Shown one piece after another: positions 7,011 to 63,296 of a stretch of 64,000 bases of DNA. Source of the stretch: Lytechinus pictus (taxonomy: Eukaryota); contig NC_087251.1 of NCBI RefSeq assembly GCF_037042905.1, forward strand, positions 14,262,001-14,326,000. Direction: 5' to 3'. The translations under genes and the position numbers were made by a program. Every line of letters starts with the position of its first letter. Positions within the stretch are counted from its first letter, which is position 1. The notes beneath the pieces were generated by a model. The model had not been told where the DNA came from. It did not search any database and saw nothing but the letters and a program-made list of their open reading frames with translations.

Positions 7011-7280
7011 GAGAGAGATAATTTTAAGAATAAACCATGGCAAAACATATGATTTCCTTTCATTTTCCATCTGCCATGCATCTTGTGCTTTACAACAATT
7101 CAATGTCACAAATTATAACTAACAAATGAATTCAACTACGTGTATTACAATGGTGATAGAAATCTTGGCTGCTCACAATGAAAATGTGTTACTACTATCA
7201 CAATACAACATGTCACGTAGTGTGGTCAAAGACTAAATAATCTATGAGATAAGTAATGTAGGTGTTTAATCTAATTCCAG

Positions 7281-7470
7281 CTGGGATGAAACTCATTTTG
7301 GCAAGATGGGGAGCTACTACATCAATCGCACATTCTTCTTTGATGTGCATCCACCGCTGGGTAAGATGTTGATAGGCCTTGCTGGCTATGTGTCTGGATA
7401 CAATGGCTCCTTCCCATTTGATAAACCTGGAGACAAGTATGGTGACACTGAATACTATGGCATGAGAGCT
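7281..7470 (+). CDS. POMT2: POMT2 exon A: (C)[35 protein letters not shown]...YYGMRA
   Basis: ttccag| acceptor, |gtaagt donor; catalytic DE motif of PMT loop 1. Confidence 0.96.
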
Positions 7471-24963: not shown

Positions 24964-25008
<45 letters not shown>

Positions 25009-25028
25009 ATGAACATCATCATCATCAT

Positions 25029-25059
<31 letters not shown>

Positions 25060-31000: not shown

Positions 31001-34000
31001 ACTGGTTACAATTGTCCATTTTGCCTGAAAATCCAAGATGGCTTCCATAAATTGGTTCTAAAATGACAACTGTTACTTTGAAGTGGATGTAATATCCACT
31101 TGTGAGAAATAATTTTGGTGCCTACATTCAAAATGCAAGCAGGTAAGAGTTGGCAACAGCACCCATTGATGTAATTTTAGAATCTACCTTGGACTTTGGA
31201 CAAAATTGATAACTAACCATCCTTGTTACTTGTCCTAATGTAATAGTGGACCCTTCATACCACAGTGTAGACACCAAAAATGTTTCTCACATGTTGATGT
31301 TGTATGAACTCAGATAATTTCTGAGTGATATAAGTCATTTTAGATGCCATTTTGAAAATCCTCTTGGATTTTAAAGGAGAATGAAACCCTTGAAACCAGC
31401 TGAATCCATATCAAAGAGAAAAATCAAAGAAACATATTGTTGAAAGTTTGAGGAAGATTGAATGATAATAAGAAAGTTATGAGCATTTGAATATTGAGAT
31501 CACTAATGCCATGTAGATCCTCCCATTGGCAATGCGACCAAGATCTGTGATGTCACACACGTACAACTCCCTCATTACTTTAGTACTTATTTCACTTATA
31601 TTTTCACTTTTATAAAGTCTATCACAAGGTGAGGTGTTCTCTTTATGAGAGGACAAGTACAGAGGTTTCACAACATTATATCATTGATGAATCATTTGTC
31701 ATATGATTAGAATGAGTAAAAAGATATGTTTTGGGGTATATTTTCAGTGTCCAAAAGGGGAGAGTTGTTCATCTGTGACATCATAGATCTTGGTCGCATT
31801 GCCAATGGGAGGATCTCCATAGCATTAGTGATCTCGACATTCAAATGCTCATAACTCTTCTATTGCTAGTCCTATTTTACTCAAATTTTTGTTGATCTTA
31901 TTCATTGATTTTTCTGCTTTCACAAAAGCTAACTTGCTCCAAGAGTTTCATTCTCCTTTAAGGAAAAAATGGACAACTGGATATCATTGTAACCAGTCTA
32001 AACATATTTTTAAAACCTTGAAACCAAAGTGTGAACATCAACAATTTTTTTTCTTGGTGGATTTTAAATGAACTATGTCAAATTTTAAGTAACAGACTCC
32101 GATTAGACTCCAATTGTCGGAAGCCATCTTGGATGTTTAGACACACTAGATTACGGACTGTCCTTGTAACTTGTTCAAATGTACATGATGTATTTACTGA
32201 CATATATTACACGAAATATGTCAATTTGTTAGTAACAGGAGCTATTCCATTTTTGGAAGCCACCTTGGATTTTTGGACAAACTTGACCACTGACTGTCCT
32301 TGTTACTTGTCCTAATGTATTATTTGACCCATTTAACCATGACATAAACATATTCCAGGATATCAAACAAACTACTTTTTTAATGCAGCAACAGCAATTT
32401 TAGACTCCATTTTTGGAAGCCATCTTGGATTTTTTTATATAATGGACAACTGACTGTCCATTCAACTTGTGATAGTGTATTATTTGACCATTGAAACCAT
32501 GGTCTAGACACCAAAATCATATATCTCAGATTGATAGGAAATGACCTATATGTCCATTTATATATCAACAGCCATTTCAAACTCCATTTTTGGAAGCCGT
32601 CTTAGGGTTTTGGACACGTCAGACCACTGGCTGTCCTTGTAACTAGTCCCAATGTACTACTTCACCCTTAAAACATAGAAACCAAATTAAGCCACTGAAA
32701 TTAGATGTTATTTGGTTGTCATGGCAATGACTGAAGTTATTTGTACATCAACAGCAAACATATCTATGCTTTGCATCTTAAAATTAGGGGAAATTTATGA
32801 CAAAATGCAGATTTTAAACTGTTTTTCGATCAAATTTGGTGCTTTTCTTGGGAAAAAAGAGTTGTTGCCATGGCAACGGCCCATTTGCAACATTGATATT
32901 TATCATTAACTTCAAGCATTACCAAGGCAACCTCAAATTTCACCATTCTAATGAACTAATGCGAAACATTGTAATCTTTGTTCAAAATTAAATGACTGGG
33001 TCAAACCTTGAGTTAATTGTTATAAATTGCAGTTTCCACCTGTCCATTATCATGTCAACCATGTTAATTTTTTTTTCAAATTAGATGTTACTTGGTTGCC
33101 ATGACAATGGATTTATATGTTATTTGCATGTTAACAGCAAACATATCTATTCTTACCCTAAAGTTAAGGGAAATGAAAGAAAAATCAGATTATACAGTCC
33201 TTTTAAAAAATCAAAACTGCTACTGTTCTTGGGTAAATGATCCGTTGCTATGGCAACAGGCCATTTGGAACATTGATATTTATCGTTAAATTCAAGTATT
33301 ACCAAGGCAACATCAATGTTTATTATTTTAATTAGTTCATGCAGAACACTGACTGTATTATTTCCCCTAAATTAGTTGAGTAGGTCAGACCTTACGAATG
33401 CACATTAAGTTAATATTCATTGTATCTTTCACCTGTTTTTAACCTTATCATCCACTTTTTAAAAAAATTAGATGTTATTTGGTTGCCATGGCAATGGCTT
33501 AAGATGTTATATTTATAAATTAAGTCACAAACATATCTCGATTAGTACCTTGAAATTGGGGAAAATGGAATGATGATCATACCGTACATGTATTCTACAT
33601 TTTTATCAATATTTTTACCTTTCTAGAGGGAAATAAGCTGTTTCCATGGCAACGGGCCCTTTGTAAAATTGTTCCTTTTTAAATTCAATTCAAGCATTTC
33701 CAAAGCAACATAATATTTTATCTTTATAAAGAACTCCTGCAGAACAATTTTGTATTTTTTGTTCAAATGAGGGGGTCAAAACTTAAGCATACAGATTAAG
33801 TCAATTCCAATTGTATTTTCCACCTATCCATTGTCTTGACAACCATGGTATTTTTGTAAATTAGATGTTATTTGGTTGCCATGGCAATGGCTTGAGATGT
33901 AATTTACACATTTAGCAACCAAAATATCTTTGTTAAGCACTGTAAAATTAGGGGAAAATAAAGATATATCATATTCTACAACTTTTTTTTAACCAAAATG

Positions 34001-43664: not shown

Positions 43665-43793
43665 CTAAAGCTTCTCAAACATGGTGTCTTCAATGTACTG
43701 ATATGCTGCAGTCCATGCATCCTGGACCTCACTGCTAAAGACTGACTTCCCAAGGCCTTGCTTCAGCGTGAACATCAGGGCACTCTTGGCAGC
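43665..43793 (-). CDS. Polyglobin terminal exon (G7-H of D10): AAKSALMFTLKQGLGKSVFSSEVQDAWTAAYQYIEDTMFEKL*
   Basis: Acceptor gccag| at 43794-43798 on -, TAG stop at 43665-43667. Confidence 0.92.
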   Translation of the reverse strand, partial: AAKSALMFTLKQGLGKSVFSSEVQDAWTAAYQYIEDTMFEKL

Positions 43794-46700
43794 CTGGCAA
43801 AAAAGGTATATGGAAGAAGGAATTTATTATACTTAGAATACCAATTGAAAATGAAAGTTAATTGTATCCATACACACGGCAAACTGTATTTGTGCTGTTG
43901 AAAATATAAATGACAGAAATTTTAGACTCCGTTGAGGGATACAATTAACCCCAAGAAACCAAATTAATGTTGATATGTTTAGGTATTCATCCACATGGGG
44001 AAATATTTCATGTTGTTTAAAATTCATGTATATTGACTATGATCTTCCTGCTCTTTTTTAAAATTGATGCAAATATTGATTTGTCACCCTAGTCACTTGC
44101 TGTCAAGACAACTTAACTTTACCAAAAGCAATATTCTCATTGCAACATTGATTTTACTGTTAACATATGCCCTTTTGATATGATTCAAATTTCGATTTGT
44201 TTTTACTTTCATTGAGGCTTTGATAATATCAAATATGCAGTCAAGACTTAGGCAAATCAGTAGAAACTTCAAAAGTAATATAATCAGTGCAACATTAAGT
44301 TTTATGGGGTCAGATGCCTTGTCAGTAATGTATGAATTATTATTATCTTACCATGATAATTTTCAATATCTTACTATTATTGATGTTTCTTCACTCATTT
44401 TAAAGTGTAAACCAATTAAACTCAAGAACGATCTTATGAAATTTGTCAAGTTAACTCACCACAAAAAGGTCTTTCGTGACCCCGTAGCCTGAGTGTCTTG
44501 TTGCGAGCTGATGAAGCATCGGAACCAAGAACTCTGGATCCTCTAGGCCACCAACCACTTGACCCATGGTGCTCATAAATCTCTCACCATGACTGATCAC
44601 TTCATTTTCATTTAAGAGCTTGTTGTAGGGATACTTCTTCTTGCCAAAAGAGAAGAGCTTTCCAGCTTTAGGATTGTCGCTGACCAATCTTAAATCAATG
44701 AACATGGAATTGGTTCAGGGTATATCTTTCCCACAAATTCAACGACAAAAATAATATAGAACAAATTGATAGAATTACATCATCTGGTTTGCCATTTTAA
44801 AACGAAAATTTCTTATCCTTATGCATTTGGCCCTCAGAAATCACATTCTTATCATCATAACATTGTCATCAAGCAGTTGTTTCATATCTAAACAAGATCT
44901 CCAGCAATCTAACTTATTTGTGATATTGATGATTACATTTACATAATTATATAGCCTTTACTATGATTCTAATTGATATACAAAACTCTCATTTCTGTTT
45001 CTATTCTACATCCAATCATGCTTAGCTTGAGAATAGAAATTTAGATTGTGTTTGGAGGATATGTGTTGGTGTGTTTTTAGATTGCGTGGATGAGTGTATT
45101 TATGGTAGGAGTGAGGGGGTATGTTTATAACAGATAGCAAGAAAAAGAAACTGAAACAAAAATACCTGAGATTCCATTGCACTATCTATCCTGTAATATC
45201 CTACTGTTACACCCCATCATATAGGAAAGGGCGCTACCTTTTCAATTTGTCATTTATAAGGACTTACTTTGCGAACATGACCGCACCATGCTTGTCAGGA
45301 GCAGAAGCCATTAACTCCCATGTACTCCTAACAAGTTCTCGCTGTTTACTTTTCATCATCTCTGTGCCCGTTGTCTTTCTTCCATCTAGTAGCTTTAAAG
45401 ACATGACATCCACTATCAACTGGAAAAGGACCTCCCAAGCCTGACGAACTTCTTCCGTGAAACCATGGCCAAGTGCATCGCTGATAGCGAATAACAGCGC
45501 TTCTCCCGCATACTGGTTAACACAAAACAAAACAAAAGCACAATTAATGAGTATAATTCTTATTCTTGCCCAAATCTGTTGTTGGTATTTACAGACTGCA
45601 TAGTTTTGAAAGAATCAGAATACATGCAGTATGATAATTTGATAGGAAAAGTAAAGAAAAGAAGCAAGAAAGAAAAGAAACAAATAAAAAGATAGAAAAC
45701 ATTCCTCTCCAATACAGTTGTTTTCAGATGCAATTCACTCATTCAAAAAGATGGAAATAAATAATTTGAGGAGCGGAGGAGGGACAAAGTCTTGTATGAA
45801 AGGTGCTAAGGAAAGGTGGGGTGCAATCCAGAACCTCATTGGTCAACCACTAGATATAAGCATCCACTCACCGGTAGATGTTGCCTTGTGACACCTAATC
45901 CATTATGCCTCTTAGCAAGTTCGTCCAACAGCGGAATGAGAATCTCATGATTCTCAAGATTATCGATGGCACTGCCAACCGTAGCCATGAACTGACGGCC
46001 ATGTTTCCTGACATCATCGTTTTCCAGGAGTTGCTCATAGGTTAGGCCTTTCCCTCCAAATGGAAAGAGGGAGCTGACCAGAGAGTGATCTGATGCTAGC
46101 CTGTATTCAAAACATTTTGAAAAAAGATTTAGAACTAGTTTTCACTTAACTATATCCTGAGGACAGTATTTGGATTGCTTTAGAAATTGTAGGTCAATTT
46201 TCAACCTTGTGGACAAGAGTTACGGTGTATATCAATAAAATTCAAATTAGAATCAATTCTACAAAATACTATCAAAATTTCATCCAATTTATAATTTTAA
46301 CCAATATAAATGATTCGTTAATCAACAATTGGTGTTGGACTACTTTCTTCAGTTTTCATTGGCTGAGAAGTGCAGGTGTCTGACTGTTACTATGGTAACT
46401 GTCCGATAAGGACAACCTGTGATCAGTGCTTACAACTTTAATGATCTAGCAACTTGGATCCATTTTAATGAGACAAATATTCTTTTCCATTACTTGGCAA
46501 AGACGACAGTGCCGTGTTGTTCAGGATTCTGACCTAACACCTTCCATGTTCGTTTCAGGACTTCAATATGGTCAAACGATATGGGTCCTTCAGGAAGAAC
46601 TTCTGACATCATGTCAGAAATGAGTTGGAAGACCACCGACCAAGCATCTTTCACTTTACTGGTGAACGAACTTCCGAGACCTTCTTTAATGGCGTACATC

Positions 46701-49700
46701 AAAGCTTGTCCGGCCGGCTGTAATTTACCAAAAAAGAAAAGAAAATAGTTTTCAGAGTAAACTCACAGAAAATGATAACATTTTGTTAATGTTTGCTGAG
46801 GCACGTAGTTCATAATATTTAGAAAAGGGGAAAGGAAGCAAAATTCTCTCTGTATGGAAAATGATAGAAGAGGAGAAAGGTGGAGAAGAGCAGTGTAGTG
46901 GCTGTTTTTTTTTCAATAGCTACGGTTATATACAAGATCGATGATTCGGGAATGGTCAAAACTCAACCTAAAATATTATTAATGTTTTTAATGTATTATG
47001 TGATAGGGTAGTAGGATCATATTAGTTTTCATTACAACTAGCAAATCTTTGATAAACATAAGTAATGAGTCTGAACCATATGACACGTCTAACACTAAAA
47101 TAGCTAATCTACGTACTTATCACCCTATTGATTTTGAATTCATGCAAGATTGTTCACTTGAGAGTGTGAAAAAGAAACAAACCTCAAAATGCATTTTGGT
47201 GACGTTGTACTGAATATGTCTGAGTGCTAGTTCCTTCAAGACTGTTGCAAGATCGTCTACGTTGTCAAGATTTTCTACGGCGAGGCCGATGGTTTCCATT
47301 ACCTTCGTCCCATGAGCTCGGACTTTCTTGTTGGACAGCAGCTGACTATAGCTCAAGTTTTGATCTCCGTATGGAAACAATCGACCAACGATTGGATTTT
47401 GTGTTGTTAGTCTGTGGTTAATTTGGAAAAATATAGATCTTTGCATTTAGCATTATGAATTTTAAAAATAATTCAACAATATTACCAATGGGAGCAGAAA
47501 GAACAATTATAGCTACCACATAGAAATCTTAAAGTATCATACCTGCCTGAGAACAAATAAATTGAGTACAATTTCAAACAACTTATTTTGGTCCTTAGAT
47601 ATTATGAATAAGGAATGAATTCGATAGAAATTTTGCCAGTTGTGACCCTTCAAAATGTATTTGGGCAAATTTATTAACATTATTGAAGTAAATTTGATAA
47701 TATACACTACATTTATTATTAACTTAATATACATGTTTATGTTTCAATCATATCTAAATTCGCCATCATGGCATTTTGAAAGTTGAAATAAGAAATGGGT
47801 ATTCCATATTTTGATGATTGTAAGGCTGAGCCATTTCTTTTCATTTTTCGCCACACACTTCCCTACTATATAGTAAAGCGGATAAGCCAAACAATTGTGC
47901 AAATTATGACTAAAGCATGAAACTGATATGATAAACATTGATGTTGCCTTGGTAATACTTGAATTTAACGATAAATATCAATGTTCCAAATGGCCTGTTG
48001 CCATAGCAACGGATCATTTACCCAAGAAAAGTACCAGTTTTGATTTAAAAAAGGACTGTATAACATGATTTATCTTTAATTTCCCCTAATTTTACAGTGC
48101 TAAACAAAGATATTTTGGTTGTTAAATGTGTAAATTACATCTAAAGCCATTGTCATGGCAACCAAATAACATCTGATTTGAAAAAAATAACATGGTTGAC
48201 ATGATAATGGACAGATGGCAAATGCAATTTATAACAATTAACTCAAGGTTTGACCCAGTCATTTAATTTAGAACAAAGATTACAGTGTTTCGCATAAGTT
48301 CATTAGAATGATGAAATTTGAGGTTGCCTTGGTAATGCTTGGATTTAATTATAAATATCAATGCTGCATATGGCCCGTTGCCATGGCAACGACTCCTTTT
48401 TTCCCACAACAAAAGTACAAAAATTGATCGAAAAACAGTGTAGAAACTGCATTTTGTCATATAAAATTTCCCCTAATTTTAGGGTGCAAAGCATGGATAA
48501 TTATGTTTGCTGTTGATAGACAAATAACTTAAACCATTGTCATGACTACCAAATAACATCTAATTTCAGTGGCTTAATTTGGTTTCTATGCAATGGTTTT
48601 AAGGGTGAAGTAGTACATTGGGACTAGTTACAAGGACAGCCAGTGGTCTGATGTGTCCAAAACCCTAAGACGGCTTCCAAAAATGGAGTTTGAAATGGCT
48701 GTTGATATATAAATGGACATAGCTCATTTCATATCCGTCTGGGATATATGATTTTGGTGTCTAGACCATGGTTTCAATGGTCAAATAATACACTATGACA
48801 AGTTAAACGGACAGTCAGTTGTCCAGTATATCAAAAAATCCAAGATGGCTTCCAAAAATGGGGTCTAAAATTGTTGTTGCTGCATTAAAAAACGTAGTTT
48901 GTTTAATATCCTGGAATATGTTTATGCCATGGTTAAATGGGTCAAATAATACATTAGGACAATATACAAGGACAGTCAGTGGTCAAGTATGTCCAAAAAT
49001 CCAAGGTGGCTTCCACATATGGAATATAAAATAGTCTTTGTTACTAACAAATGGACATATTTCGTGTAATAAACCATGGTTTTAAAAGTAAGTAAATACA
49101 CCATGTACATTGGAACAAGTTACAAGGACAGTCAGTAATCCAGTATGTCTAAACATCCAAGATGGCTTCCAACAATTGGAGTCTAATCGCAGTCTGTTAC
49201 TTAAAAATTGACATAGTTCATTTAAAATCCACCAAGGAAAAATTATTTTGGTGTTCACACTTTGGTTTCAAGGTTTAAAAAATACCTTTAGACTGGTTAC
49301 AATTATATCCAGTTGTCCCATTTTACCTAAAAAAATCAAGAGGGTTTTCAAAATGGCATCTAAAATGACTTCTATCACTCAAAAATTATCAGAGTTCATA
49401 CAACATCCACCTTTGAGAAACATTTTTGGTGTCTACACTGTGGTATGAAGGGTCCATTATTACATTAGGACAAGTAACAAGGATGGTTAGTTTTCAATTT
49501 TGTCCAAAATCCAAGGTAGATTCTAAAATTACATAAGAATGGGTGCTGTTACCAACTCTTATCTGCTTGCATTTTGAATGTAGGCACCAAAATTACTTCT
49601 CACAACTGGATATTACATCCACTTCAAAGAAACAATCGTCATTTTAGAACCCATTTATGGAAGCAATCTTGGATTCTCAGGCAAAATGGACAATTGTAAC

Positions 49701-52700
49701 CAGTCCCAACGTATCATTTGATCCTTAAAACCCTAGTGTAGACACAAAAATAACATCCCCAGGTGTATTTTTAATGTACTATGTCCACTTTTAAGTAACA
49801 TTAAAACCCCCATTTTTCAAGCCATCTTTGAATTTTTGGACACAATAATGACACCTGACTGTCCTTTCAACTTAACGAAATGTACAGTATTACTTGACCC
49901 TTTAAATACTAGTGTAGACACCAAAACCATATCCCCAGTGTATATCATTAATGAAGTATATGTCCATATTGAAGTAACAACAGTCAATTTAGACCCCATT
50001 TTGGAGGCCATCTTGGATTTTTTAACATACCAGACCACTGATTGTAACTTGTTCTAATGCATTAAAGCATGGTTTTATGATTATGGTTTAGACATTAAAA
50101 TCATATTCTCCAGACAGATATTGAACAAACTATGTCCTAGTTTATTACTTGACTCTTGAAACGATGGTTTAGACACCAGAATCACATCTCACAGGCGGAT
50201 ATAGAATGAGCTATGTCAATTTTTAAGTAACAACAGTCAATTTTAGACCCCATTTTTGTAAGCCATCTTGCCTTTTTTAACATACCAGACCACTGACTGT
50301 CCTTGTTACTTGTCCTAATGCATCACTTGACCATTTAAACTATGGTTTAGACACCAAATCATATTCCCCAGACAGATATTGAACAAACTATGTTTATTTG
50401 TAAGCAACATTAGACATTGTTTTACACCTTTTTTGAAGCCATCTTGGAATTTTGGACATACTAGACCACTGACTTCCGTGTAGCTTGTCCTAATGTATTA
50501 TTGGCCTTTGAAATCGTAGTTTAGACACCAAAATCATATTTCAAAGGTGAATATAAAATGAGCTATTCCACTTTTAAGTATCAGCAGCCATTTTAGAATC
50601 ATTTTTGGAAGCCATATTGGATTTTCGGACATACCTGACTGTCGTTGTAACTTGTATTATATTTTTAGTAATATTTTTCATTAAATTCAAGTATTACCAA
50701 GGCAACATAATTTTATTATTCTAATGAACTCATGCAGAACACTTACTTAAATTTTTGTTCAAAATTAAATGACTGGCCAAACCTTTCGCATATTGAGTTA
50801 TTTATAATTGTATTTTCCACCTGTCCATAATCTTGTTATCCAAATTATTATTTTTTTTGTAAATAAGATATTATTTGGTTGCCATGGCAATAGCTTCAGA
50901 TATTATTTATACATTTTGCATCTAACATATCTATGTTTAGCACACTAAGATTAGGGGAAATGCAAGAAAAATCAGATTCTATAGTCCCCTTTTTAATCAA
51001 AACTGGTACTAAATGATCCGTTGCTATGACAACATGCCATTTGGAACATTGAAATATTTATCGTTGAATTCAAGTATTACCAAGGCAACATCAATGTTTA
51101 TCATTCTAATTAGCTCATGCAGAACACTCACTATATTATTTTCCCCTAAATTAATTGAGTAGGTCAAACCTTAGGCATGTACATTAAGTTCATTTTCATT
51201 GTATTTTTCACCTGTCCATAACCTTGTCATCCATGTTGTTGTTTTTTAAAATTAGATGTTATCTGGTTGCCATGGCAATGGCTTAAGATGTTATATTTAT
51301 AAATTTAGTCACAAACATATCTCGATTAGTACCTTAAAATTGAGGAAAATGGAATGATGATCATACATGTATTATACATTTTTATCAATATTTTCACCTT
51401 TCTAGAGGGAAATAAGCTGTTGCCATGGCAACAGGCCTTGTGAAAAATCGTTTCTTTTAAAACTTAATTCAAGCATTACCAAGGCAACATAATTTTTCAT
51501 CTTTATAAAGAACTCCTGCAGAACACTTTCTGTATTTTTCGTTCAAATGAGGGGGTCAAAACTTAAGCATACAGATTAAGTCGATTCTAATTGTATTTTC
51601 CACCTGTCCATTGTCTTGTCAACCATGTTATTTTTGTAAATTAGATGTTATTTGGTTGCCATGGCAATGGCTTGAGATGTAATTTACACATTTAGCAACC
51701 AAAATATCTTTGTTTAGCACTGTAAAATTAGGGGAAATTAAAGATAAATCATATTCTACAACGTTTTTTTAATCAAAATTTTTATTTTTCTGGGGAAAAA
51801 CAAGCCGTTGGAGAAATTAATCCGTTGCCATGGCAACGGCCGAAAATGGCATTTAAAAATTTACCTCCCATCTTTAAAATAAATCATACGGCATATACTT
51901 ATACTTGTGAAAGTTTCATGCTTTAGTCAAAATTTGCACAATTGTTGTGTTTTTTGAGCTTATCCGCTCTACTATACCCTCTTCTTCCTTTTTTCTCCTT
52001 TTCATTTGATCACTTAATCCATACTGGTAGTCATCTTGTCTTCGTTTAGCTCCCTGAATACTTAGCACTGATTTACTTCCTAAATAATGTCATCCTTCAT
52101 ACCTAGTGACCAAAAGATGCATCATAAGTCGTCCTGAGACGATTGCAATGGATGCATTTACCTTGCAAACATGACAGCACCGTGTTTACCGGGATCTGTA
52201 GATAGAATCCTCCATGATTCTTTCACAAGCCTTTTGGTCTCATCTGTTAGTATGATATGGTCTGGCAAGATTCTTGACATGGTATTGGTGATCACTGTGA
52301 ATACAGCCCTCCAGGCTTCTCCAACTTCTGAAGAAAATTGCTGACCCAATCCCTCCTCGATGGCGTGCATTAATGCTTTTCCAACAGGCTGTACAAAAGA
52401 GGATTTCAAACATCGACAAGAATGAGAATAACCAAATCACCAAAAAAGCCTTAAGGACTGATGTGAAAATCTCTGTTTAGTAAATTTTTATATAATTGAA
52501 ATCATCTTCTTCGTATTTCTACTGCCATTAAGATGAGTTTGTCGCATATAAATTGAACTCTACACCAAAGTTGTCAAGATATTTAGTGAAAATTTAAGAG
52601 AGTAAGTTTTTGACAAATGAAATAAAATTCTGTACAGCCATAGGTAACAATATCAGTATATGTTACAGACTTATTGCATACCAGGAAGATTGATATAGAT

Positions 52701-55700
52701 ATATATATACATTAAGTGTGCAATTAGTATTAAAACTGACTTTTTTAAATACAATTTTGAAATAAATGTTTGGATAATTGCACTTTAAACGAGTGTTGGT
52801 TTTTTTCAATTATCTTGAAATCCTTAATTTGGCTTAAATGAAACAATTCTATCTAGAGTACTACATGAACGTTAAATATAGTGCAAGCCAGACACCAAAT
52901 ACCTCATATCAACTGTAGGATGTATTGACTCTTGATACCTTGATTATGAATTTGAAAACTGATCTTTAAAGCAGACATCAATTAATCAATACACAATCAC
53001 CCCTGACTCACTTTGAAGTACTTCTTGGTTACGCCATACTGATGGTGTCTCTGTGCCAATTCCTCTAGGACTGGAACCAAAAGATCAAGATCATCCAAAC
53101 CCGACACAGCATGACCCACAGTCTCCATCACTTTCCTCCCATGTGATTTCGCCTGGGAGTCGGCAAGAAGTTGGTCATAAGAAAGATTCTTCTTTCCAAA
53201 AGGAAACAGCCTGCCAATCGCAGGGTTGTCTGTTACAAGCCTATTGTGATAACAAAATGGAGTTGAGCGTTCAGTTACTATGAAAATAACCTAATAATGG
53301 TTTCATAAAAATATAAAAACATGCTCAATTGGTTTTTATTGGAATGATTAAATGAAACAGGAAATATGAGAAAAGCCCAATCAAAACTAATATTATTCTT
53401 GTATGAACAAAGTACAGGACATGTGAGTAAGTACATACTTCGCAAACATTACAGCCCCATGTTGTTCTGGATTTCTAGACAAGATCGTCCAGGTCGCTCG
53501 AACAAGATCCTTCTTTGCATCGTCGAGGGTACCATCCGGTAGTTCAGCGGACATCGTATCGACAACAATCTGGAGAACTGCAAGCCAAGCCTTTTCGACA
53601 TCACTGTTGTAGTCGCGCCCAAGCCCCTGTCGGATGGCGTACATCAATGATGACACTGCCGGCTATTATACAAGTGGGAATCGTCAAAGCAATGAAAATG
53701 ATTTACTGACAATTTACTTGAATGTATCGCCAGAAATTACATTTATTGTGAAATGAATTTTACTTGAGTTTGAATTAATGTAAATCCATGTATGCTACAT
53801 GTGGAATACATTGAACAGAAAAAAAAATTATTAATATAAAGAACAGAAGGTACTATAAGAAATGAAAATACTGGTGTAAATCAATTAAAATTTTAAGAAT
53901 TCATCCTCTGAAACATTGAATTATGAACTGAAAGCAAAGCTATGTGACCCATGAAAAAGATGATACTTTTTGAAAAGCTTGATTTGAAATTTAATCTCCT
54001 CTTAGTAAAGAGGCATCTGACATATTTTAAAACAGTAAAATGATTGGGGCTTAGATTTGTAGTGAAACAAAAACAGTCACAGAAGTCAATGAGTAGACAT
54101 AATAGATGCAAATGAGATAAAAGTAGATAGATTAATTTCATAGTTCATAGAAAAGGAAGAAATTAAAAAAAAGAGTTGTTTATTAAAAGGTAACCGATGT
54201 ATGCAATGACAGGGTTTTTAAATTATGATAATATAGAAAAGGATTGCTTGGAAAATGTTCTTATCATTATTTCCCATTGCTTTTCTTGATAGTAATTAGA
54301 ATTGTGATTGTAGTCTAAGGTTGATGCACATATGCATGTTACATGACTAATGATCGTCTGTATTTTGTTAATTTGGAAAATGAGTAAGGGATCTATTCGT
54401 CAAAATAGAGACCTTGCAGTTTGAAATAAATTTGTAACATAATTAAAGGGACAAGAACTCATTAGTCTTTGCCATACCTACCGAAAAGTGTTGCTTGGTG
54501 ACGCCATAGGCTATATGTCTTGTTGCAAGTTCTTGTAACATCAGCACCACCGAGCTTATATCATTGAGTCCATCGACTGCGCCTCCAACCGTCTGCATGA
54601 CTCTGGTGCCATGGGCTCGGACCCTTGGATCAACTAGGAGTTGATCATATGAAAGGCCTTCATCACCAAATGGTAGCAGAGGGCCTACTGCAGGATAATC
54701 TGTAACAAGTCTGGAAACAAAGATGGTAACCTATTGTTTATATACCACCACAAATAGCAATGAACAATCATGATGTGTTGTATTATACTCCACAGACATG
54801 TAATATTGCATATCAATTGGTGAAAGTTATAAAAAAAATTAATCAATCACAAAAGGCCTATGGTGTTCTGCTTTTCGATGAACTCCCAAGGTATTAAGCT
54901 TTGATCTTTACACCCTCAATGAAGATGATAATTATTTTGAAGTATTCGTAAAATGATGGTGCATTGCACAAAATACTATCTTTGATATCAGTGCGATGCA
55001 CTGTGTACTATGTCATCAGAAGCCCATTACCCATGCGTGTAATTAAAGCAAACACAGACACGTTTCGGAAGTAGACATTGACGCACATCCTCCGCGAAAG
55101 AAACAATTTTTCAGCTTTGCCTGCATTCAATTATATCATTTTCAGTGTAGGTATAATTTTTATGTGGTCCTTTTTGTAATTCAATCGCTGCCGATGGGGA
55201 ATATAAAGTAATAATCACACTTTTTATTTAATTGTTGATACAATCTACCACTTCCTTCGAAATAAAAATGTAGATGCTTTGTATCCTCAGCTTCACTTTG
55301 GAAAGATCCAAAGTTTATTTGTCTCATCACTTTCACCAATGCAATAATTTGCTAGTTATTTTCAGGTATTAGGCTGACATTGTGCAAGATAGCCTACGGA
55401 ATAAGTTGTCATTGCCCGTGCTTGTTGTGATCAAATGCTACAATGAAGTGTTTTAAGATATAATAACAAAACCACAAGATAAAAGAAAAATGAAATGCAA
55501 AAACAAAACATCAAATCGATATAAATGGTGTGCAAGTATCTCTGAATTAATAACCAAGCTAAGTGGGCGAGGGGGTGGTTAAAGATGGTCATTATATCAT
55601 TACATTGTGTTGAGAAGGTTTATGCTACTTCCATCTCAATTCATTTAATTTTGTTTCTTTCCATTTCCAAATTAATTACTCAATGCACAATATATAATTG

Positions 55701-58700
55701 AATTCCTTAAGATAAGATGTATATTTAATGTGCAATCACTGTAAAATACTTACTTGGCAAACATTGCCGATGGGGAATATAAAGCAATAATCACACTTTT
55801 TATTTAATTGTTGATAAAATCTACCACTTCCTTCGAAATAAAAATGTTGATGCTTTGTATCCTCAGCTTCACTTTGGAAAGATCCAAAGTTTATTTGTCT
55901 CATCACTTTCACCAATGCAATAATTTGCTAGTTATTTTCAGGTATTAGGCTGGCATTGTGCAAGATAGCCTACGGGATAAGTTGTCATTGCCCGTGCTTG
56001 TTGTGATCAAATGCTACAATGAAGTGTTTCAAGATATAATAACAAAACCACAAGATAAAAAAAAAATGAAATGCAAAAATAAAGCATCAAATCGATATAA
56101 ATGGTGTGCAAGTATCTCTGAATTAATAACCAAGCTAAGTTGGCGAGGGGGTGGTTAAAGATGGTCATTATATCATTACATTGTGTTGAGAAGGTTTATG
56201 CTACTTCCATCTCATTTCATTTCATTTTGTTTCTTTCAATTTCCAAATTAATTACTCAATGCACAATATATAATTGAATTCCTTAAGATAAGATGTATAT
56301 TTAATTTGCAATCACTGTAAAATACTTACTTGGCAAACATTGTTGCTCCATGTTTAGCTGGATCAGTTGCTAGTTTTCTCCAAGTCTCCTGTACCAGCCG
56401 TTTGTTTTCAGTAGTGATAGATCCTTTACTCAAGGCCTCAGACATTGTATCGGATACAATCTTGAAAACGGCAACCCAAGCCTGTCTCACTTCATCAGTG
56501 AAATCACTTCCTAGTGCTTCTTTGATAGTTTCAAGAAGCACTTCTCCAACAGGCTGGAATAAATATGATTTGTAATTGTATATTTCAATAAGCAAAGGAA
56601 ACGATCTTCTATCGTGCCATAGACAAAAACCATTAACCCTATGTATGAACCTTTCCTCTCTATATTACTGCTGATGGCAATACTTGTCAAATATTATTAG
56701 ACAAGGTTAGGTTGTGGAGATAATGCCTCAAACAATACCTTGCTCATATGTCATTCAAAACTATAATACTACTGAAAACACCATGATTATTTTACTGTAT
56801 TACCTTGCACTAATAGAGAGACCATTAATGGTTGGTATTGGTGGTATTTTCTAAACAGTTCCTTGTTCACACCTAATTAAAAACTGCAAAGTGTTCAATT
56901 CAATAAAAAGAATATAGGACAATGCTAAATGGTTAATGTACCCGTACATGAATGGAGAGACCAAGAAATTCAGGAAATATTAGCAATACCTCAAACATTT
57001 CCTTGACATTCACGTGCTCAAACCTATAATTCTTCATTAAAGTTACATATAATGTGGATTATGATCTTCTGCCATGCAGAACCCTTAAATTAATGGAGGG
57101 ACAAACAAGGTTAGGTAGTTGGGTCATAACTCAACAATACCTTGTGCACACATTGTCAAGGCTAGAAAGGCGTCAGTTCATTTATATGCATAGTGAATTA
57201 TTGATCCTGCAACCTTTGTATTAATGGAGAAACCATCAGACATATGTGGCAATGTGTAAAGTGTTCCTTGTTAACGCTTTAATGGTCGTTTTAGACCACG
57301 TTCTTAGTATACTTTCTTGAGCTTATTTCCCTTTAATTAGTTTAGAAGATCGCTTTGCTAGTGTCCTACAGGAGCACTCTCATTTGGGTCAGTGTTTCGC
57401 ATGAAATATGAATTCGCAGTGTTGGCATTCTACAGTGTGTGGAGTAGCGCGCCCAACATGTGCGAATATCACTTCCTGAAGAATGGTCGTGTGCTCACCT
57501 ACGCTTAAGCTACTTTGACGGGGCTAAGCGATTTTGAAAACAACATTGCGAGGTGGTTTTCTGAACCAGTTTGGAAGACCACTTAAAGGACAAGTCCAAC
57601 CCCCCCCCCAAAAAAAAAATGATTTGAATAAAAAGAGAAAAATAACACTGAATATGTCCTCAAAATAGGATGTAAAATAAGGAATTATGAAATTTTAAGG
57701 TTTTGCTCAACTTCACAAACAGTTATATGCACATCCTGGTCGGTATGCAAATGAGGAGACCGATGACATCACCCACTCTCTATTCGTTTTGGACTTTAAG
57801 ATTCAAGATTCAAGATTCAAGATTTATTCATTCCATTCGATAAAAAGATACAATTCATACATACAAATTTACAAATTTACAAGATTTACATACAAATTTA
57901 CAAGATTTACATTTGGATACAATACAATTTATACAAACACAGAAATGGTATTGATTTCACATATATAGAAAAAAATCAAATGGAAATGGGTCACTGCAAA
58001 AGTTCAAAAAGGGACTTGAACTTTATTATATGAAATATTCTAATTTTCTCATTGTCTCGCGAAACAAAGTTTTATTTCTTCATAAATATGTGGAATGACC
58101 AACGTTTAGAGAGTTTATGGTTCAGTCACGTTGGTCATTCATGTCGATTCTGTATATAAAAGCTGAAATATTATATTCTTCAGACATTGAAAAAAAAAAG
58201 TAAATGAGTGATATCATCGACTCTCACATTTACAGATCATTTAGTTTTGCATATAACTGTTGTGTGAAAAATAAGCAAAACTTTCAAATGTCATAGCTTT
58301 CTTATTTTACATCCGATTTCGATGAAATTTTCAGCATTGGGCTTGTTTGATTTTTCTCGATTGATTCAAATGAACATTGTTCTGGGCAATCTGGGGTGAA
58401 CTTGACATTTGAATTCGCTTCCAAGATCGCTTTTAGCGTCCCATTGCACATTAAACTGATTTCCAATAAACTAGTTTAAGGACTGTAATGAGAACGGTTT
58501 TCTAGTTGCTACCCTTGCCCTAATGGAGAGACCATTAAGAATTGGTATTTGATAGTATATCTCTAACTGTTCCTTATTCGGGCAAAACTTCTATACAATG
58601 ACAAACGTAATGAATTATTCATCATGCTATCATTGCTTTAACGGGTTAGTAAGGTCAGCTAATCCTAATAATACCTCAAAAAGTTCCTTGTTAACACCGT

Positions 58701-61700
58701 ACCCCACATGTCTCCCTCCAAGATCCCTCAAGATTGGAACCAAGAGATCCAGGTCATTTAGTCCATCTACTGCAACACCTACGGTCTCCATCACTTTCTT
58801 ACCATGGGCCAGAACCTTGGAGTGTTTCAAAAGCTGGGCGTAAGACAGGTTCTCTTTACCAAATGGAAAGAGCTTGCCAACGGTAGGATGTCGGGTGAGT
58901 AGCCTGTGAACATGTTTTAAGAGATTTGTATGAGTTGAAAATTGAGAATTTACATTCAAGAATTCAATTACGATTAGGCTTTTTACAAGAAATATGATTA
59001 TCACTCGTCAACAACCAGCTTTTACTTACACATTGTTCTATCGTGATTATATTCACAAAACTTGCGTGTAACACATTGATCAAGGCTTGAAAAGATAAGT
59101 TGAATGCTAATCCATTTGTATTCATTTTGTTGTAGGATTACAATTTTCAGTTGTCTTTTTCTTTTGATTGCTTTTGTTTTTACATCTTTGGAAGGAAATT
59201 ATAGTAAGAACTATTTTGTATACAAATATTGAACTATCAATGACCTTAATAAATAAATCAATCCATGTCAGAGGAGAGGCTCATAATTGTTTCCTAGTAG
59301 ATTTACAAGTGATCCCATAAATATTGTCCAAAACTACTAATCGATAGTAAAATATCAATCGATGATTATGATACTACTTTACCATGTAGTGAAAACTTAC
59401 TTTGCAAACATCACTGCTCCGTGTTTTGCTGGATTCGGAGCGAGTATTTGCCATGTTCTTTTAACTAACTCCTTCTGCTCTGATGTTGGTGGAGCAGCGT
59501 CTTGTAGGATTTCAGACATTGTGTTTGTGATGAGTTGGAAGACGGCCATCCAGGCACTCTGGATATCTGGAGAGAAGGATGAACCTAGTCCTTCTTTGAT
59601 GGCATGAATCAGGGCTGCCCCTACAGACTGGTTGAATTAACAACAGAAACGACAGAAATAATATTTTACCCCCTTAGATTAAGAAGCGAATATCAACTCG
59701 GATTATTGCAAATGATGTAGATAGATAAATATTAGTTAGGCCTACTAGATTCTGTACTGTTGATATACGGTTATATCTTCAAAATACTGAATCGAAATGG
59801 GTGGATATAAGACAAATCATTCGGTCAAGGGTTTATGCCGTTGCCATTATACCTTGAAATGTTTCTTGGTGACATTGTAGCCAATGTGCCGTGTTGCCAG
59901 CTCACGTAGAATTGGTACGAGAAAGCCTAGATCATCTAAACCATCTACAGCTGTTCCAACTGTCTCCATGACACGTTTACCATGTGCTAGAGCTTGTGGA
60001 TCTCTCAGTAGCTGTTGGTATGATAGATTCTTGCTACCGAATGGGAATAGATGACCTACATCAGGATTATCAGTTACAAGTCTGTAGGTTTAGAGAGAGG
60101 AAAATCATTGAATTAAATGGTAATTTTTCAGACCTGTTGGTCAAGCTGTCTTCAAGGTATATGCTGAAGATGGCATGTAGTATATTGAAAGAAATCATTT
60201 TGTTAAGTATAAGTTGATTAAGATAGGCCTATTTTTCAATCTGTTGCTCTGGGAGTGGAATTGGGAGTTGTTTTGAGCAGTTTAGTCCATGTTAACCATG
60301 CACTTATAAATGAAAGGGGAGGACGCAAATAATTACGAGACGTTTGTGCCATATAACTCTGGAGCCGCAAGAGTTCACATAGTATTATGGCGTCAAGACT
60401 TTTTCTCTGTCATCCTCTCTCTTCCTCACCCCCCCCCCCCCTACATCTACTACTTCAATCTGTTGCTCTGGGGGTGGAATTGGGAATGGTTTTAAGCAGT
60501 TTAGTCCATGTTAACCATGCACTTATAAATGAAAATATCTTTACAAATCCCCACCAACATAGTTGGGTGACTCCACTTACTTCGCAAACATGACAGCGCC
60601 ATGTTTTGCTGGGTTCGAAGCAAGACTTCGCCATGTTCTTTTCACAATCTCCTTCTGCGCTGATGTCGGAGGACCAACACTTGGAAGGATTTCAGACATT
60701 GTGTTTGTGATGAGCTGGAAGACAGCCACCCAGGCACTCTGGATATCTGGAGAGAACTTTGAACCTAGACCTTCTTTGATGGCATGAATTAGTGCTGCTC
60801 CGACAGACTGTATGAATGAATAACACCAATTGAGAAGTACTAATAGTTAACCCTCTTCGTTTACGAATCAAATACCAACTCATATACTGCAATCATAGGA
60901 TATAGACAGGTAAATATTAGTGTACTCCTACTTGATACTGTGCAGTTACTACTGTTTATTTTTACACAACTGAATAGTTGATATAAAATACTAGTACACT
61001 TTCAGTTCAGATTTTGTTTATGCCATTATACCTTGAAATGTTTCTTGGTAACATTGTAGCCAATATGTCTAGTTGCTAGTTCCCGTAGAATTGGTACGAG
61101 AATGTCTAGATCATCTAAACCATCTACAGCCGTTCCAACTGTCTCCATGACACGTTTACCATGTGCTAGAGCTTGTGGATCTCCCAGTAGCTGCTGATAT
61201 GAAAGATTCTTGTTTCCGAATGGGAAGAGATGACCTACATCTGGATTGTCCGTTACAAGTCTGTGATATCAGTGATTCAATGAAATAATCGTGCCGCTAC
61301 AACAAAATTCAATATGTACTACATAAATAAATTATTTAATGAACAGAAATAGGTTGGGTAAATTAATTACATCACATTTCACTAATTAGACATCATCACT
61401 AATTGTCACAACTAGATCGTCAGTTGTGTGGTAACTCGATGAAGGCAACTCAACATAAAACTAATTGAAACACATACATGACTATAATATACAGGGACAT
61501 AGCCCAACAAATAGAAATGTTGCGATTTACAGTCTTATAGCAATTAGTGATGAAGTATCACATTTTTCTAAAACTTTTCTCTTCTTTGGAATAACGGTAT
61601 ATTTATCTCTCTACAAAAGTATACCTTGCCCTCCTTACTTTGCAAACATCACGGCACCGTGCTGTGCTGGGTTCGAAGCCAGTTTTCGCCATGTTCTTTT

Positions 61701-63296
61701 CACGATGTCTTTTTGCGCTGATGTCGGAGGACCAACACTTGGAAGGATTTCAGACATTGTGTTTGTGATGAGCTGGAAGACGGCCATCCAGGCACCCTGG
61801 ATATCTGGAGAGAAGGATGAACCTAGTCCTTCTTTAATGGCATGAATCAGGGCTGCACCTACGAGCTACATGGATTGAAAATAACGAAATTATATCCAAG
61901 ATCCCTGGTATTAAGAATCTGAACAATATTATTGTAAGAGAGGAACCATACGATTACAAATATATATTACATCATATACTTTTTTCTTCGTCATTCAATG
62001 CTCATTATCCAATCGGGTCAGAAGGATTCCCCGGTGCGGTTACGAATTAACTTACATGCTCTTGTAAAAACAGCATGAGATATAGTTTTATAAAACTTAC
62101 ACTAAAGTGTTGTTTGGTGACATTGTATCCAATGTGTCTAGTTGCCAGCTCACGTAGAATAGGTACAAGGATGTCGAGATCGTCTAAGCCATCAACAGCT
62201 GTTCCAACTGTCTCCATGACACGTTTACCGTGTGCTTGAGCTTGTGGATCTCTCAGTAACTGTTGGTATGATAGATTCTTGCTCCCGAATGGGAATAGAT
62301 GACCTACATCAGGATTATCCGTTACAAGTCTGTAGGTTTAGAGAGAGGAAAAATCTGTGAATTAAAGGGTAATTTTTCAGATTTGTTGGTCAAGCTGTCT
62401 TCAGGGTATATGCTGAAGATGACATGTACTATATTGAAAGAAATCATTTTGTTGAGTATCAGTTGATTAAGATACGCCTATCCTTTCAATCTGTTGTTCT
62501 GGGAGTGGAATTGGGAATGGTTTTAAGCAGTTTAGTCCATGTTAACCATGCACTTATGAACGAACAATTCTTTACAAATCCCCACCGACATAGTTGGGTG
62601 ATTCCACTTACTTCGCAAACATGACGGCGCCATGTTTTGCTGGGTTCGAAGCAAGACTTCGCCATGTTCTTTTCACAATCTCCTTCTGCGCTGATGTCGG
62701 AGGACCAGCACTTGGAAGGATTTCAGACATTGTGTTTGTGATGAGTTGGAAGACGGCCATCCAGGCACCCTGGATATCTGGAGAGAAGGATGAACCTAGT
62801 CCTTCTTTAATGGCATGAATCAGGGCTTCACCTACGAGCTACATGGATTGAAAATAACGAAATTATATCCAAGATCCCTGGTATGAAGAATCTGAACAAT
62901 TATAAGAGAGGAACCATACGATTACAAATATATATTACATTAGATATTTTTCCGTCGTCATTCAACGCTCATTATCCAATCGGGTCAGAAGGATTCCCCG
63001 GTGCGGTTAAGAATTAACTTGCATGCTCTTGTAAAAACAGCATGAGATATAGTTTTATAAAACTTACACTAAAGTGTTGTTTGGCGACATTGTATCCAAT
63101 GTGTCTAGTTGCCAGCTCACGTAGAATAGGTACAAGGATGTCGAGATCGTCTAAACCATCTACAGCCGTTCCAACTGTCTCCATGACACGTTTACCATGT
63201 GCTTGAGCTTGTGGATCTCTCAGTAGCTGCTGATATGAAAGATTCTTGTTTCCAAATGGGAACAAATGACCTACATCAGGATTGTCCGTTATGAGT
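43665..63296 (-). CDS. Multi-domain (>=10 domains) neuroglobin-like globin, spliced gene model (20 exons in window, 5' incomplete)
   Basis: Ten 229-nt exons alternate with 224-245-nt exons and end in a 129-nt terminal exon; all GT/AG, one continuous frame (4471 nt). Each domain has B10 Phe, E7 His and F8 His. Motifs W..L..P..HG.V.FAKL and VGE.L...L...LG..F.....AW resemble neuroglobin. Confidence 0.95.
44460..44688 (-). CDS. Polyglobin core exon D10 (E11 Phe)
   Basis: 229 nt; LVSDNPKAGKLFSF...SHGERF...TRHSGYGVTKDLFV. Confidence 0.92.
45268..45512 (-). CDS. Polyglobin junction exon D9/D10 (longer linker)
   Basis: 245 nt; YAGEALLFAISDALG...LLDGRKTTGTEMMKSKQRELVRSTW...HGAVMFAK. Confidence 0.92.
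45872..46100 (-). CDS. Polyglobin core exon D9 (E11 Phe)
   Basis: 229 nt; LASDHSLVSSLFPF...KHGRQF...KRHNGLGVTRQHLP. Confidence 0.92.
46494..46717 (-). CDS. Polyglobin junction exon D8/D9
   Basis: 224 nt; PAGQALMYAIKEGLG...NPEQHGTVVFAK. Confidence 0.93.
47183..47411 (-). CDS. Polyglobin core exon D8
   Basis: 229 nt; LTTQNPIVGRLFPYG...AHGTKV...LRHIQYNVTKMHFE. Confidence 0.93.
47871..51974. mobile_element. Foldback-type element, copy 2 (internally deleted, 4.1 kb), in polyglobin intron
   Basis: Termini TAGTAAAGCGGATAAGC / GCTTATCCGCTCTACTA; interior matches the reverse complement of about 29980-33325 and 26140-27570; TSD not clean. Confidence 0.88.
52162..52388 (-). CDS. Polyglobin junction exon D7/D8
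   Basis: 227 nt; PVGKALMHAIEEGLG...DPGKHGAVMFAR. Confidence 0.93.
53012..53240 (-). CDS. Polyglobin core exon D7
   Basis: 229 nt; LVTDNPAIGRLFPF...SHGRKV...QRHHQYGVTKKYFK. Confidence 0.93.
53439..53662 (-). CDS. Polyglobin junction exon D6/D7
   Basis: 224 nt; PAVSSLMYAIRQGLG...NPEQHGAVMFAK. Confidence 0.93.
54482..54710 (-). CDS. Polyglobin core exon D6 (CD1 Leu)
   Basis: 229 nt; LVTDYPAVGPLLPFGDEGLSY...AHGTRV...TRHIAYGVTKQHFS. Confidence 0.92.
55189..56342. repeat. 576-bp near-perfect tandem duplication including a splice donor
   Basis: CCGATGGGGAATATAAAG at 55191 and 55767; both units end in CTTACTTGGCAAACATTG. Confidence 0.92.
56330..56553 (-). CDS. Polyglobin junction exon D5/D6
   Basis: 224 nt; PVGEVLLETIKEALG...DPAKHGATMFAK. 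Confidence 0.93.
56670..57280. repeat. Degenerate ~140-bp tandem repeats
   Basis: TAATGGAGAGACCA-like anchors at about 56811, 56951, 57091, 57222 and again at 58521. Confidence 0.6.
57587..58408. mobile_element. Degenerate TTAA MITE containing a short LINE 3' tail (about 57797-58020, - strand)
   Basis: ttaa|AGGACAAGTCCAACCCC...GGGGTGAACTTGACAT; insert ends on - with AATAAA(TCTTGAA)3. Confidence 0.65.
58675..58903 (-). CDS. Polyglobin core exon D5
   Basis: 229 nt; LLTRHPTVGKLFPF...AHGKKV...GRHVGYGVNKELFE. Confidence 0.93.
59401..59627 (-). CDS. Polyglobin junction exon D4/D5
   Basis: 227 nt; ...EILQDAAPPTSEQKELVKRTWQILAPNPAKHGAVMFAK. Confidence 0.93.
59853..60081 (-). CDS. Polyglobin core exon D4
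   Basis: 229 nt; LVTDNPDVGHLFPFGSKNLSY...TRHIGYNVTKKHFK. Confidence 0.93.
60581..60807 (-). CDS. Polyglobin junction exon D3/D4
   Basis: 227 nt; SVGAALIHAIKEGLGSKFSP...HGAVMFAK. Confidence 0.93.
61032..61260 (-). CDS. Polyglobin core exon D3
   Basis: 229 nt; LAHGKRV...TRHIGYNVTKKHFK. Confidence 0.93.
61639..61865 (-). CDS. Polyglobin junction exon D2/D3
   Basis: 227 nt; LVGAALIHAIKEGLG...NPAQHGAVMFAK. Confidence 0.93.
62101..62329 (-). CDS. Polyglobin core exon D2
   Basis: 229 nt, near-identical to D1. Confidence 0.93.
62612..62838 (-). CDS. Polyglobin junction exon D1/D2: LVGEALIHAIKEGLG...KRTWRSLASNPAKHGAVMFAK
   Basis: 227 nt, phase 0 to phase 2. Confidence 0.93.
63068..63296 (-). CDS. 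Polyglobin core exon D1 (B12.2-G7.0): LITDNPDVGHLFPFGNKNLSYQQLLRDPQAQAHGKRV...TRHIGYNVAKQHFS
   Basis: 229 nt, phase 2 to phase 0, AG/GT flanks. Confidence 0.93.

Follow-up and report, generated by a model that had tools for sequence, protein, structure and literature searches.

Organisation of the globin locus

We analysed a window of 64,000 nucleotides of the sea urchin Lytechinus pictus (contig NC_087251.1, positions 14,262,001 to 14,326,000), whose minus strand carries the 3' part of a long gene for tandem globin domains. Between 43,000 and 64,000, six-frame reading shows open segments of two kinds alternating regularly on this strand. A splice-aware model, in which splice sites were placed by the conserved protein pattern and their dinucleotides then checked, resolves window positions 63296-43665 into 20 exons with a coding length of 4,468 nt, or 1,489 amino acids (1,489.3). 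Ten of these are 'mid' exons, all of 229 nt, which begin late in helix B and reach into the first part of helix G. Each of the nine 'bridge' exons (224-245 nt) completes one domain with helices G-H, continues through a short Pro/Gly-rich linker and supplies helices A-B of the domain that follows; a last exon closes the series. All 19 introns in the window are of the GT..AG type, there is no internal stop, and the frame ends with TAG at 43665-43667. The initial annotation of this DNA had described 20 exons, about 1489 amino acids free of stops and 10 globin domains joined by very short linkers. Our independent model arrives at the same counts, so this observation is confirmed, and the linker then quoted (...MSEILPSAGPPTSAQKEIVKRTW...) is carried by exon 62838-62612.

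As the initial annotation stated, the gene runs past the window. A Globin scan of the whole 812-Mb genome detected a further eight globin exons on the minus strand immediately upstream, and the gene extends some 30 kb beyond the window with eight further domains and an N-terminal exon. With 30 kb of upstream sequence added, the model has 37 exons, 36 GT..AG introns and an unbroken frame of 2,782 amino acids with 18 domains. Inclusion of a further 5' exon (exon 0, discussed below) gives 38 exons, 37 of 37 introns with GT..AG ends, and 2,888 amino acids with 18 Pfam Globin domains. The full gene spans about 50 kb of the minus strand (G000:C7:14305665-14355532, on the contig of the window). In the encoded protein, which has a calculated mass of about 317 kDa without haem, a non-globin N-terminus of 148 residues precedes a tandem series of 18 globin domains of the 3-on-3 fold, each about 152 residues long. 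Retrieval of the upstream sequence had been suggested as a means to count the domains and look for a signal peptide or acylation site; it yielded 18 domains in total, no signal peptide and a predicted acylation motif, MGCC.

The gene is also present in RefSeq. XP_054758842.2 ('uncharacterized protein LOC129264905', Lytechinus pictus) is identical to residues 121-2888 of our model (15-2782 of the 37-exon version), and the older XP_054758842.1 has the length of the exon-0 model (2,888 amino acids), with 30 residues differing.

The same genome-wide scan returned two other globin exons, at G000:C10:29297056-29297298 (minus strand), the best Pfam match of all (E 1.3e-13), and at G000:C7:18517519-18517722 (plus strand). 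They presumably belong to the cytoglobin-like single-domain globin and/or the androglobin reported for urchins.

Transcription and splicing

In run X1, a set of Logan contigs, a single spliced contig of 3,292 nt joins 13 consecutive exons (24-36), or about 6.5 domains, with 0-1 mismatches. At one end 445 nt lie beyond position 43600, corresponding to 3' untranslated region; at the other the contig reaches the bridge exon at 59401-59627, stopping where the near-identical domains begin. Eleven of its listed joints each coincide with a predicted intron, with CT..AC ends on the plus strand, and a twelfth (56553|58675) follows from the contig numbering, with 224 nt between the neighbouring pieces. 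The joint 61865|62101 is found in X1, in X17 and in three raw RNA reads of X20. Among the 15 joints listed (39 more lie beyond those listed), 12 match introns of the model, and the other three fall in a repeat-rich intron and have non-canonical ends. In X20 and X21, two runs on record as RNA, reads mostly have their first mate on the plus strand, the pattern expected for minus-strand RNA in a usual stranded library. The 3' 13 exons are thus shown to be transcribed and spliced.

Numbering domains from the N-terminus of the full chain, the window opens in the direction of transcription with the mid exon of domain 9 (63068-63296), which extends from late helix B into early helix G, carries His E7 and His F8 and matches Pfam Globin with an E-value of 1.1e-10. 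The bridge exon at 62612-62838, with acceptor AG and donor GTAAGT, carries helices G-H of domain 9, the linker and helices A-B of domain 10. The mid exon of domain 10 (62101-62329) and the bridge exon of domains 10/11 (61639-61865) are connected by the joint seen in the X1 and X17 contigs and in the three raw reads. The mid exons of domains 11 (61032-61260) and 12 (59853-60081) come from the model and the alignment, and the bridge exon of domains 11/12 (60581-60807) from the model. The spliced contig ends inside the bridge exon of domains 12/13 (59401-59627), where the joint 58902|59400 has its cut displaced by +1.

From there on the model and the RNA contig run together. Domain 13 has its mid exon at 58675-58903, also supported by alignment, and the bridge exon of domains 13/14 (56330-56553) is delimited by the joint 54710|56330 and by the 224 nt of contig between the neighbouring pieces. 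The mid exon of domain 14, with Leu at CD1, lies at 54482-54710 and was one of those tested against Pfam; the bridge exon of domains 14/15 follows at 53439-53662. Domain 15 has its mid exon at 53012-53240 (aligned), and after the bridge exon of domains 15/16 (52162-52388) the joint 47411|52162 removes an intron of 4,750 nt. The series continues with the mid exon of domain 16 (47183-47411, aligned), the bridge exon of domains 16/17 (46494-46717), the mid exon of domain 17 (45872-46100, aligned) and the bridge exon of domains 17/18 (45268-45512), which has the longest linker. The mid exon of domain 18 (44460-44688) was again tested against Pfam, and the last exon (43665-43793) supplies the G-H helices of domain 18 and the TAG stop. 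All of these exons are on the minus strand.

Could the array instead be divided among different genes or transcripts, on the model of the Spur_v3.1 annotation with its 14 + 2 domains? Strongylocentrotus purpuratus has been reported to possess a 14-domain and a 2-domain protein (Christensen 2015, PMC4527676), and RefSeq isoforms differ in length. However, all 17 inter-domain joints fall inside bridge exons, so that any transcript boundary between two domains would have to cut through an exon. Moreover, one contig joins 13 exons, current RefSeq models in five species are single chains of 2,425-2,888 amino acids, and the published 2-domain protein, as described, lacks helices G-H of its second domain and so has the look of a model truncated at a mid exon. 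We regard a division into several genes as improbable.

Domain anatomy and haem-pocket residues

The three mid exons that we tested all match Pfam Globin (PF00042), with E-values of 1e-10 to 2e-8 and scores of 35-42 bits against a cut-off of 22; two bridge exons and the last exon, each submitted alone, matched no Pfam family. The complete 2,888-residue protein gives 18 Globin stretches, with a total of 1,164 bits, and no other credible domain. The 18 domains, of about 152 residues each, can be aligned nearly without gaps.

The initial annotation reported the distal His E7 and the proximal His F8 in all 10 domains of the window and Phe B10 in the nine whose B helix is visible there. Our alignment bears this out: both histidines are invariant in the 10 mid exons of the window, and Phe B10 is present in nine of nine, as well as in the tenth domain, whose B helix lies just outside. 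Over the full chain, His F8, Phe B10 and Trp A12 are found in 18 of 18 domains. His E7 is present in 17 of 18, the exception being domain 5, outside the window, which has Gln. Phe CD1 likewise occurs in 17 of 18; domain 14 has Leu (mid exon 54710-54482), a substitution in the window that is absent from the initial annotation. Position E11 is Val in 15 domains, Ile in domain 4 and Phe in domains 17 and 18. In the mid exon of domain 5 (G000:C7:14332881-14333109), Gln E7 is accompanied by a Cys in place of the His that other domains have before helix B; the S. purpuratus orthologue of this domain, in contrast, keeps His at E7.

Relationship to neuroglobin and synteny with POMT2

When all solved structures are searched with domain 10, neuroglobins take each of the 20 top places, led by 1oj6 (E 4.1e-21, 78.7 bits), which is also the best match of the whole protein. 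Neuroglobins score about 20 bits above the next animal globin; sea-cucumber haemoglobin has an E-value of 6e-15, haemoglobin beta 4e-12 and cytoglobin 4.6e-10. The alignment with human neuroglobin covers 140 of 152 residues and places Phe B10, Phe CD1, His E7, Val E11 and His F8 in register. Vertebrate neuroglobin is thus the best solved-structure match, and the two share introns at B12.2 and G7.0 and adjacency to POMT2; yet the vertebrate protein is a single domain of 151 residues and has an E11.0 intron, whereas the urchin chain has 18 domains.

The B12.2 and G7.0 introns, at ancestral globin positions, are found in all 18 urchin domains; the vertebrate E11.0 intron is absent, the mid exons being uninterrupted. 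Absence of E11.0 was already reported for the S. purpuratus gene and the amphioxus candidate (Droge 2012, PMC3485006).

Tail-to-tail with the globin gene, the plus strand carries a PMT2-type (POMT2-like) protein O-mannosyltransferase gene, sampled over 7255-26095, with exons at 7270-7497, 8625-8798 and 25664-25870. Two of these plus-strand exons have yeast Pmt2 as their best match, and the C-terminal PMT_4TMC domain lies at 25664-25870. The only other PMT locus in the genome, on contig C15, best matches yeast Pmt1 and not the expected Pmt4, so the assignment between POMT1 and POMT2 is drawn solely from the exons in the window. By established subfamily knowledge, we take the PMT2 type to be POMT2. 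On the strength of the PMT exons in the window, the best match of two of them to Pmt2, the PMT_4TMC domain and the Pmt1-like locus on C15, the NGB-POMT2 synteny holds in Lytechinus. It is mainly by a common adjacency to POMT2 that the S. purpuratus gene was argued to be orthologous to NGB (Droge 2012, PMC3485006).

In published trees, too, the S. purpuratus domains group with neuroglobin (Christensen 2015, PMC4527676), in one case without branch support (Droge 2012, PMC3485006). A protein search with one domain returned only eight fragments of 89-149 residues and no named neuroglobin, cytoglobin or globin X (GbX) reference. Among single-domain relatives, two of 10 representatives and one cluster member carry names, 'neuroglobin-like' (a crinoid; Asterias amurensis) or 'bacterial hemoglobin-like' (Asterias rubens), which were assigned automatically and are no test of class.

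Globin X genes have extra introns in helices E and H. The urchin exons have none there, since each mid exon covers B12 to G7 without a break, as each bridge exon does G7 to the following B12. The domains are best classed, by similarity and synteny, as neuroglobin-like rather than GbX-like, and the proposal of one chain of neuroglobin-class domains made in the initial annotation is supported by the gene model, the spliced contig, the solved-structure ranking and the POMT2-type synteny.

The N-terminus

The orthologues of L. variegatus and S. purpuratus start about 105 residues upstream of the 37-exon model, with MGCC. A tblastn search located this exon, intact, in L. pictus at C7:14355218-14355532. 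Exon 0 begins with MGCCHSKP; its ATG is the first after an in-frame stop and has A at -3 and G at +4. Its donor, GTATGT, is in phase with a pyrimidine-rich AG acceptor directly 5' of exon 1, and its protein product is 93.7% identical to that of L. variegatus. The MGCC start is conserved in L. pictus, L. variegatus, S. purpuratus and Diadema antillarum, and a 3-domain protein of Asterias starts with MGC. The N-terminal exon matches no Pfam family.

N-myristoylation takes place at Gly2 of proteins with a small residue at position 6, and may be combined with palmitoylation of adjacent Cys. Only four Cys occur in the whole chain, two of them in MGCC, which we infer to be a predicted myristoyl/palmitoyl anchor. 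No stretch of the first 160 residues is hydrophobic (the highest 19-residue Kyte-Doolittle mean is 0.66), so there is neither a signal peptide nor a transmembrane helix; together with the predicted dual-acylation motif, this suggests a membrane-tethered intracellular protein. Among the papers that we could search, none links acylation to the sea-urchin polymeric globin or describes its exon-pair cassettes; Blank and Burmester 2012, who reportedly surveyed acylated animal globins, may cover it. In Christensen 2015 (PMC4527676) and Droge 2012 (PMC3485006), words for acylation or myristoylation occur 0 times. For globin X, membrane anchoring was shown experimentally (Blank et al. 2011, as cited in PMC4527676). 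The urchin chain and globin X share a predicted N-terminal myristoylation and palmitoylation motif, which sets the urchin chain apart from neuroglobin, and an intracellular, membrane-tethered logic; globin X, however, has a single domain and the urchin chain 18.

Alternatively, the main L. pictus product could be soluble and cytosolic, starting at a Met in exon 1 and devoid of a lipid anchor, with the MGCC exon unused or minor. The current RefSeq protein does start in exon 1, where the older version included exon 0, and the joint between exons 0 and 1 has no read support, reads having been mapped to the window only. Against this stand the integrity of exon 0 (ATG context, donor and in-phase acceptor), its near identity with L. 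variegatus and the retention of MGCC out to Diadema. We find a soluble main product unlikely, though it is the most serious of the alternatives considered here.

Artemia, with nine domains, and other animals with extracellular polymeric haemoglobins also have covalently joined globin domains. These Artemia-type haemoglobins are secreted respiratory pigments. The linkage of many globin domains in each chain might suggest that the urchin protein is, like those of Artemia or planorbid snails, a secreted extracellular haemoglobin polymer. But its N-terminus has neither signal peptide nor hydrophobic segment and presents an acylation motif of cytosolic type instead, and its closest solved relatives are neuroglobins, not blood haemoglobins. 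Of all the alternatives, secretion strikes us as the most implausible.

Evolution of the array

Domain counts based on hidden Markov models (HMM) are 18 for L. pictus, 16 for L. variegatus X3, 15 for S. purpuratus X2 and 16 for Diadema setosum, and Pfam detects 16 stretches in the D. antillarum protein. Longer isoforms each add one unit of 152 residues, as S. purpuratus X1 does. RefSeq isoforms in two species, known from annotation only, differ by exactly 152 residues inside the repeat block. In a maximum-likelihood tree of 65 domains, Lytechinus and Strongylocentrotus domains show 1:1:1 orthology at most positions, and Diadema joins them at domains 1, 3, 4, 5, 16, 17 and 18. As this orthology extends to Diadema, the long array must have existed before these urchin orders diverged.

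The central block (L. pictus domains 7-12), in contrast, groups by lineage, and L. variegatus X3 lacks counterparts of domains 11 and 12. This block expanded in a lineage-specific manner, separately from that of S. purpuratus. Its neighbouring units are 81-93% identical over about 690 nt, intron included, and its mid exons have dS values of 0.32-1.04 with dN/dS of 0.05-0.13. The central units are distinct, constrained copies, neither assembly duplicates nor decaying repeats. Sequence comparison further indicates that the gene is under purifying selection.

Mis-assembly of near-identical repeats might have raised the count to 18: identity among the mid exons of domains 8-12 is 89-96%, and the RNA contig breaks inside that block. 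The repeat copies are nonetheless distinct, both in mid-exon dS and in unit length (967-1,179 nt), and the independent RefSeq model from an earlier assembly version has an equal length. An inflated count therefore seems improbable.

The summed length of an exon pair is divisible by three in 17 of 17 mid + bridge and in 17 of 17 bridge + mid combinations. With the joints lying inside exons and the exon pairs in frame, domains could be gained by unequal crossing-over or skipped by splicing without disruption of the reading frame.

We then looked for related proteins with a profile of the 10 mid exons against 1.84 billion representatives (E <= 0.001), and 1,214 proteins matched. Starfish globins also have tandem neuroglobin-like domains in one chain, but only 3-7 of them: those of Patiria miniata have 880-1,240 residues and 6-7 domains, and that of Asterias amurensis has 635 residues, three domains and the MGC start. 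A quick tree with midpoint root separates 34 echinoid domains (SH-aLRT 92) from 10 asteroid domains (98), which points to separate multiplication or concerted evolution of the echinoid and asteroid arrays.

The same search also retrieved multi-globins of protists (P0036, P0040, P0046 and P0077), with lengths of 1,142-3,690 residues and 5-8 matched stretches. They come from a dinoflagellate (Prorocentrum) and from euglenozoans or kinetoplastids (Bodo, Sulcionema, Papus). Serial globin chains are thus not confined to animals.

An 18-domain membrane-anchored neuroglobin-like chain?

The closest described relative is the S. purpuratus gene LOC763287, an orthologue with 88% mid-exon identity, 1:1 domains, the MGCC start, the B12.2/G7.0 plan and a POMT2 neighbour. 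Neuroglobin function is still unsettled more than 20 years after the discovery of the protein. The initial annotation had cautioned that the family might be known, and rightly so: the family has been published for S. purpuratus and the L. pictus gene is annotated in RefSeq. A neuroglobin-like globin with 16 domains was described in S. purpuratus (Bailly & Vinogradov 2008, as cited in PMC4527676). A later study provided a phylogeny and the '14 + 2' re-annotation, called the N-terminus 'unknown' and stated that nothing was known of sea-urchin haemoglobin biochemistry (Christensen 2015, PMC4527676). Serial sea-urchin globins were deliberately excluded from another survey (Song et al. 2020, PMC7771090). 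A literature search for LOC763287 returned no paper. As a finding of a genome scan, the gene is therefore a rediscovery: it belongs to a published family, is annotated, and has not been studied functionally. Beyond the print that we found, our contribution is limited to an acylation motif that is conserved, a cassette layout that keeps the frame, and orthology resolved domain by domain.

It is probable, in our view, that the locus is the L. pictus orthologue of the echinoid polymeric neuroglobin-like globin, a single 38-exon gene for an 18-domain chain that we propose to be membrane-anchored. By analogy with the globin family, each domain would bind one haem b through His F8, and His E7, where present, may permit neuroglobin-like bis-His coordination. 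Gly2 of MGCC would be N-myristoylated and Cys3 and Cys4 palmitoylated, and the acylated chain, like globin X, would then be tethered to a membrane on its cytosolic side. Such a tethered string of 18 haems could create a high local haem concentration, serving local O2 buffering or redox chemistry, such as NO dioxygenation, nitrite reduction, or protection from reactive oxygen species (ROS) or of lipids; which of these applies is a guess. The roles of O2 store, NO/ROS sink or electron relay advanced in the initial annotation are guesses too.

Several points weigh against this reading. Gln E7 in domain 5 and Leu CD1 in domain 14 suggest that behaviour may differ from one domain to another. That run X1 is RNA is only a guess, and exon depth is below 1 in X20 and X21, too thin to judge expression level. 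Six introns of the window, located in the near-identical repeats, fall outside the 15 joints listed. As read mapping covered the window, the splicing of exons 0-17, which lie outside, has no read support. In XP_054758842.2 (2,768 residues) the first residues are MEDDRG, encoded within exon 1, and the MGCC exon is left out. Finally, we infer haem binding, hexacoordination, lipidation, location and physiological role alike.

A bolder proposal is a lipid-anchored echinoid neuroglobin with 15-18 haems per chain, whose number would be adjustable through in-frame exon-pair cassettes, by skipping or unequal crossing-over. We advance it tentatively, a little short of an even chance. If true, membrane tethering would be ancestral to the neuroglobin lineage as well as to globin X, and the urchin would offer a genetically tractable system for neuroglobin-type globins at membranes. 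The gene encodes an extreme natural variant of neuroglobin, with 18 haem domains and about 317 kDa, and purifying selection has maintained it from Lytechinus to Diadema. Since L. pictus lends itself to breeding and gene editing in the laboratory, its gene is a workable entry point.

Repeats and other elements in the window

The introns of the globin gene contain several repeats. The 2.1-kb intron between exons 25 and 26 harbours an element at 57480-58800 for which contig word depth is in the thousands; raw RNA reads map to it on both strands, many beginning at 58290, and the region 57300-58900 has no match in Rfam. It is probably a high-copy transposable element. In the intron between exons 26 and 27, 55181-56195 contains two near-identical sets of short open reading frames (ORFs) about 575 nt apart, a tandem duplication (55181-55351 versus 55736-55927, and 55431-55619 versus 56007-56195). 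One of these four ORFs, at 55739-55927, matches no Pfam family.

Outside the globin gene, the G+C-rich interval 18001-20000 overlaps a set of broken reverse-transcriptase ORFs on the minus strand (19195-20965), with Pfam RVT_1 in two frames and an ALKBH8_N-like stretch. This is a fragment of a non-LTR (long terminal repeat) retroelement, apparently inside an intron of the PMT gene. Finally, one dispersed repeat, recognisable by near-identical ORF translations, occurs both in the region between the PMT and globin genes and in the 4.75-kb globin intron (47411-52162), with some copies inverted: 26175-26474 and 30639-30968 on the minus strand, and 33993-34292, 49737-50057 and 51732-51926 on the plus strand.

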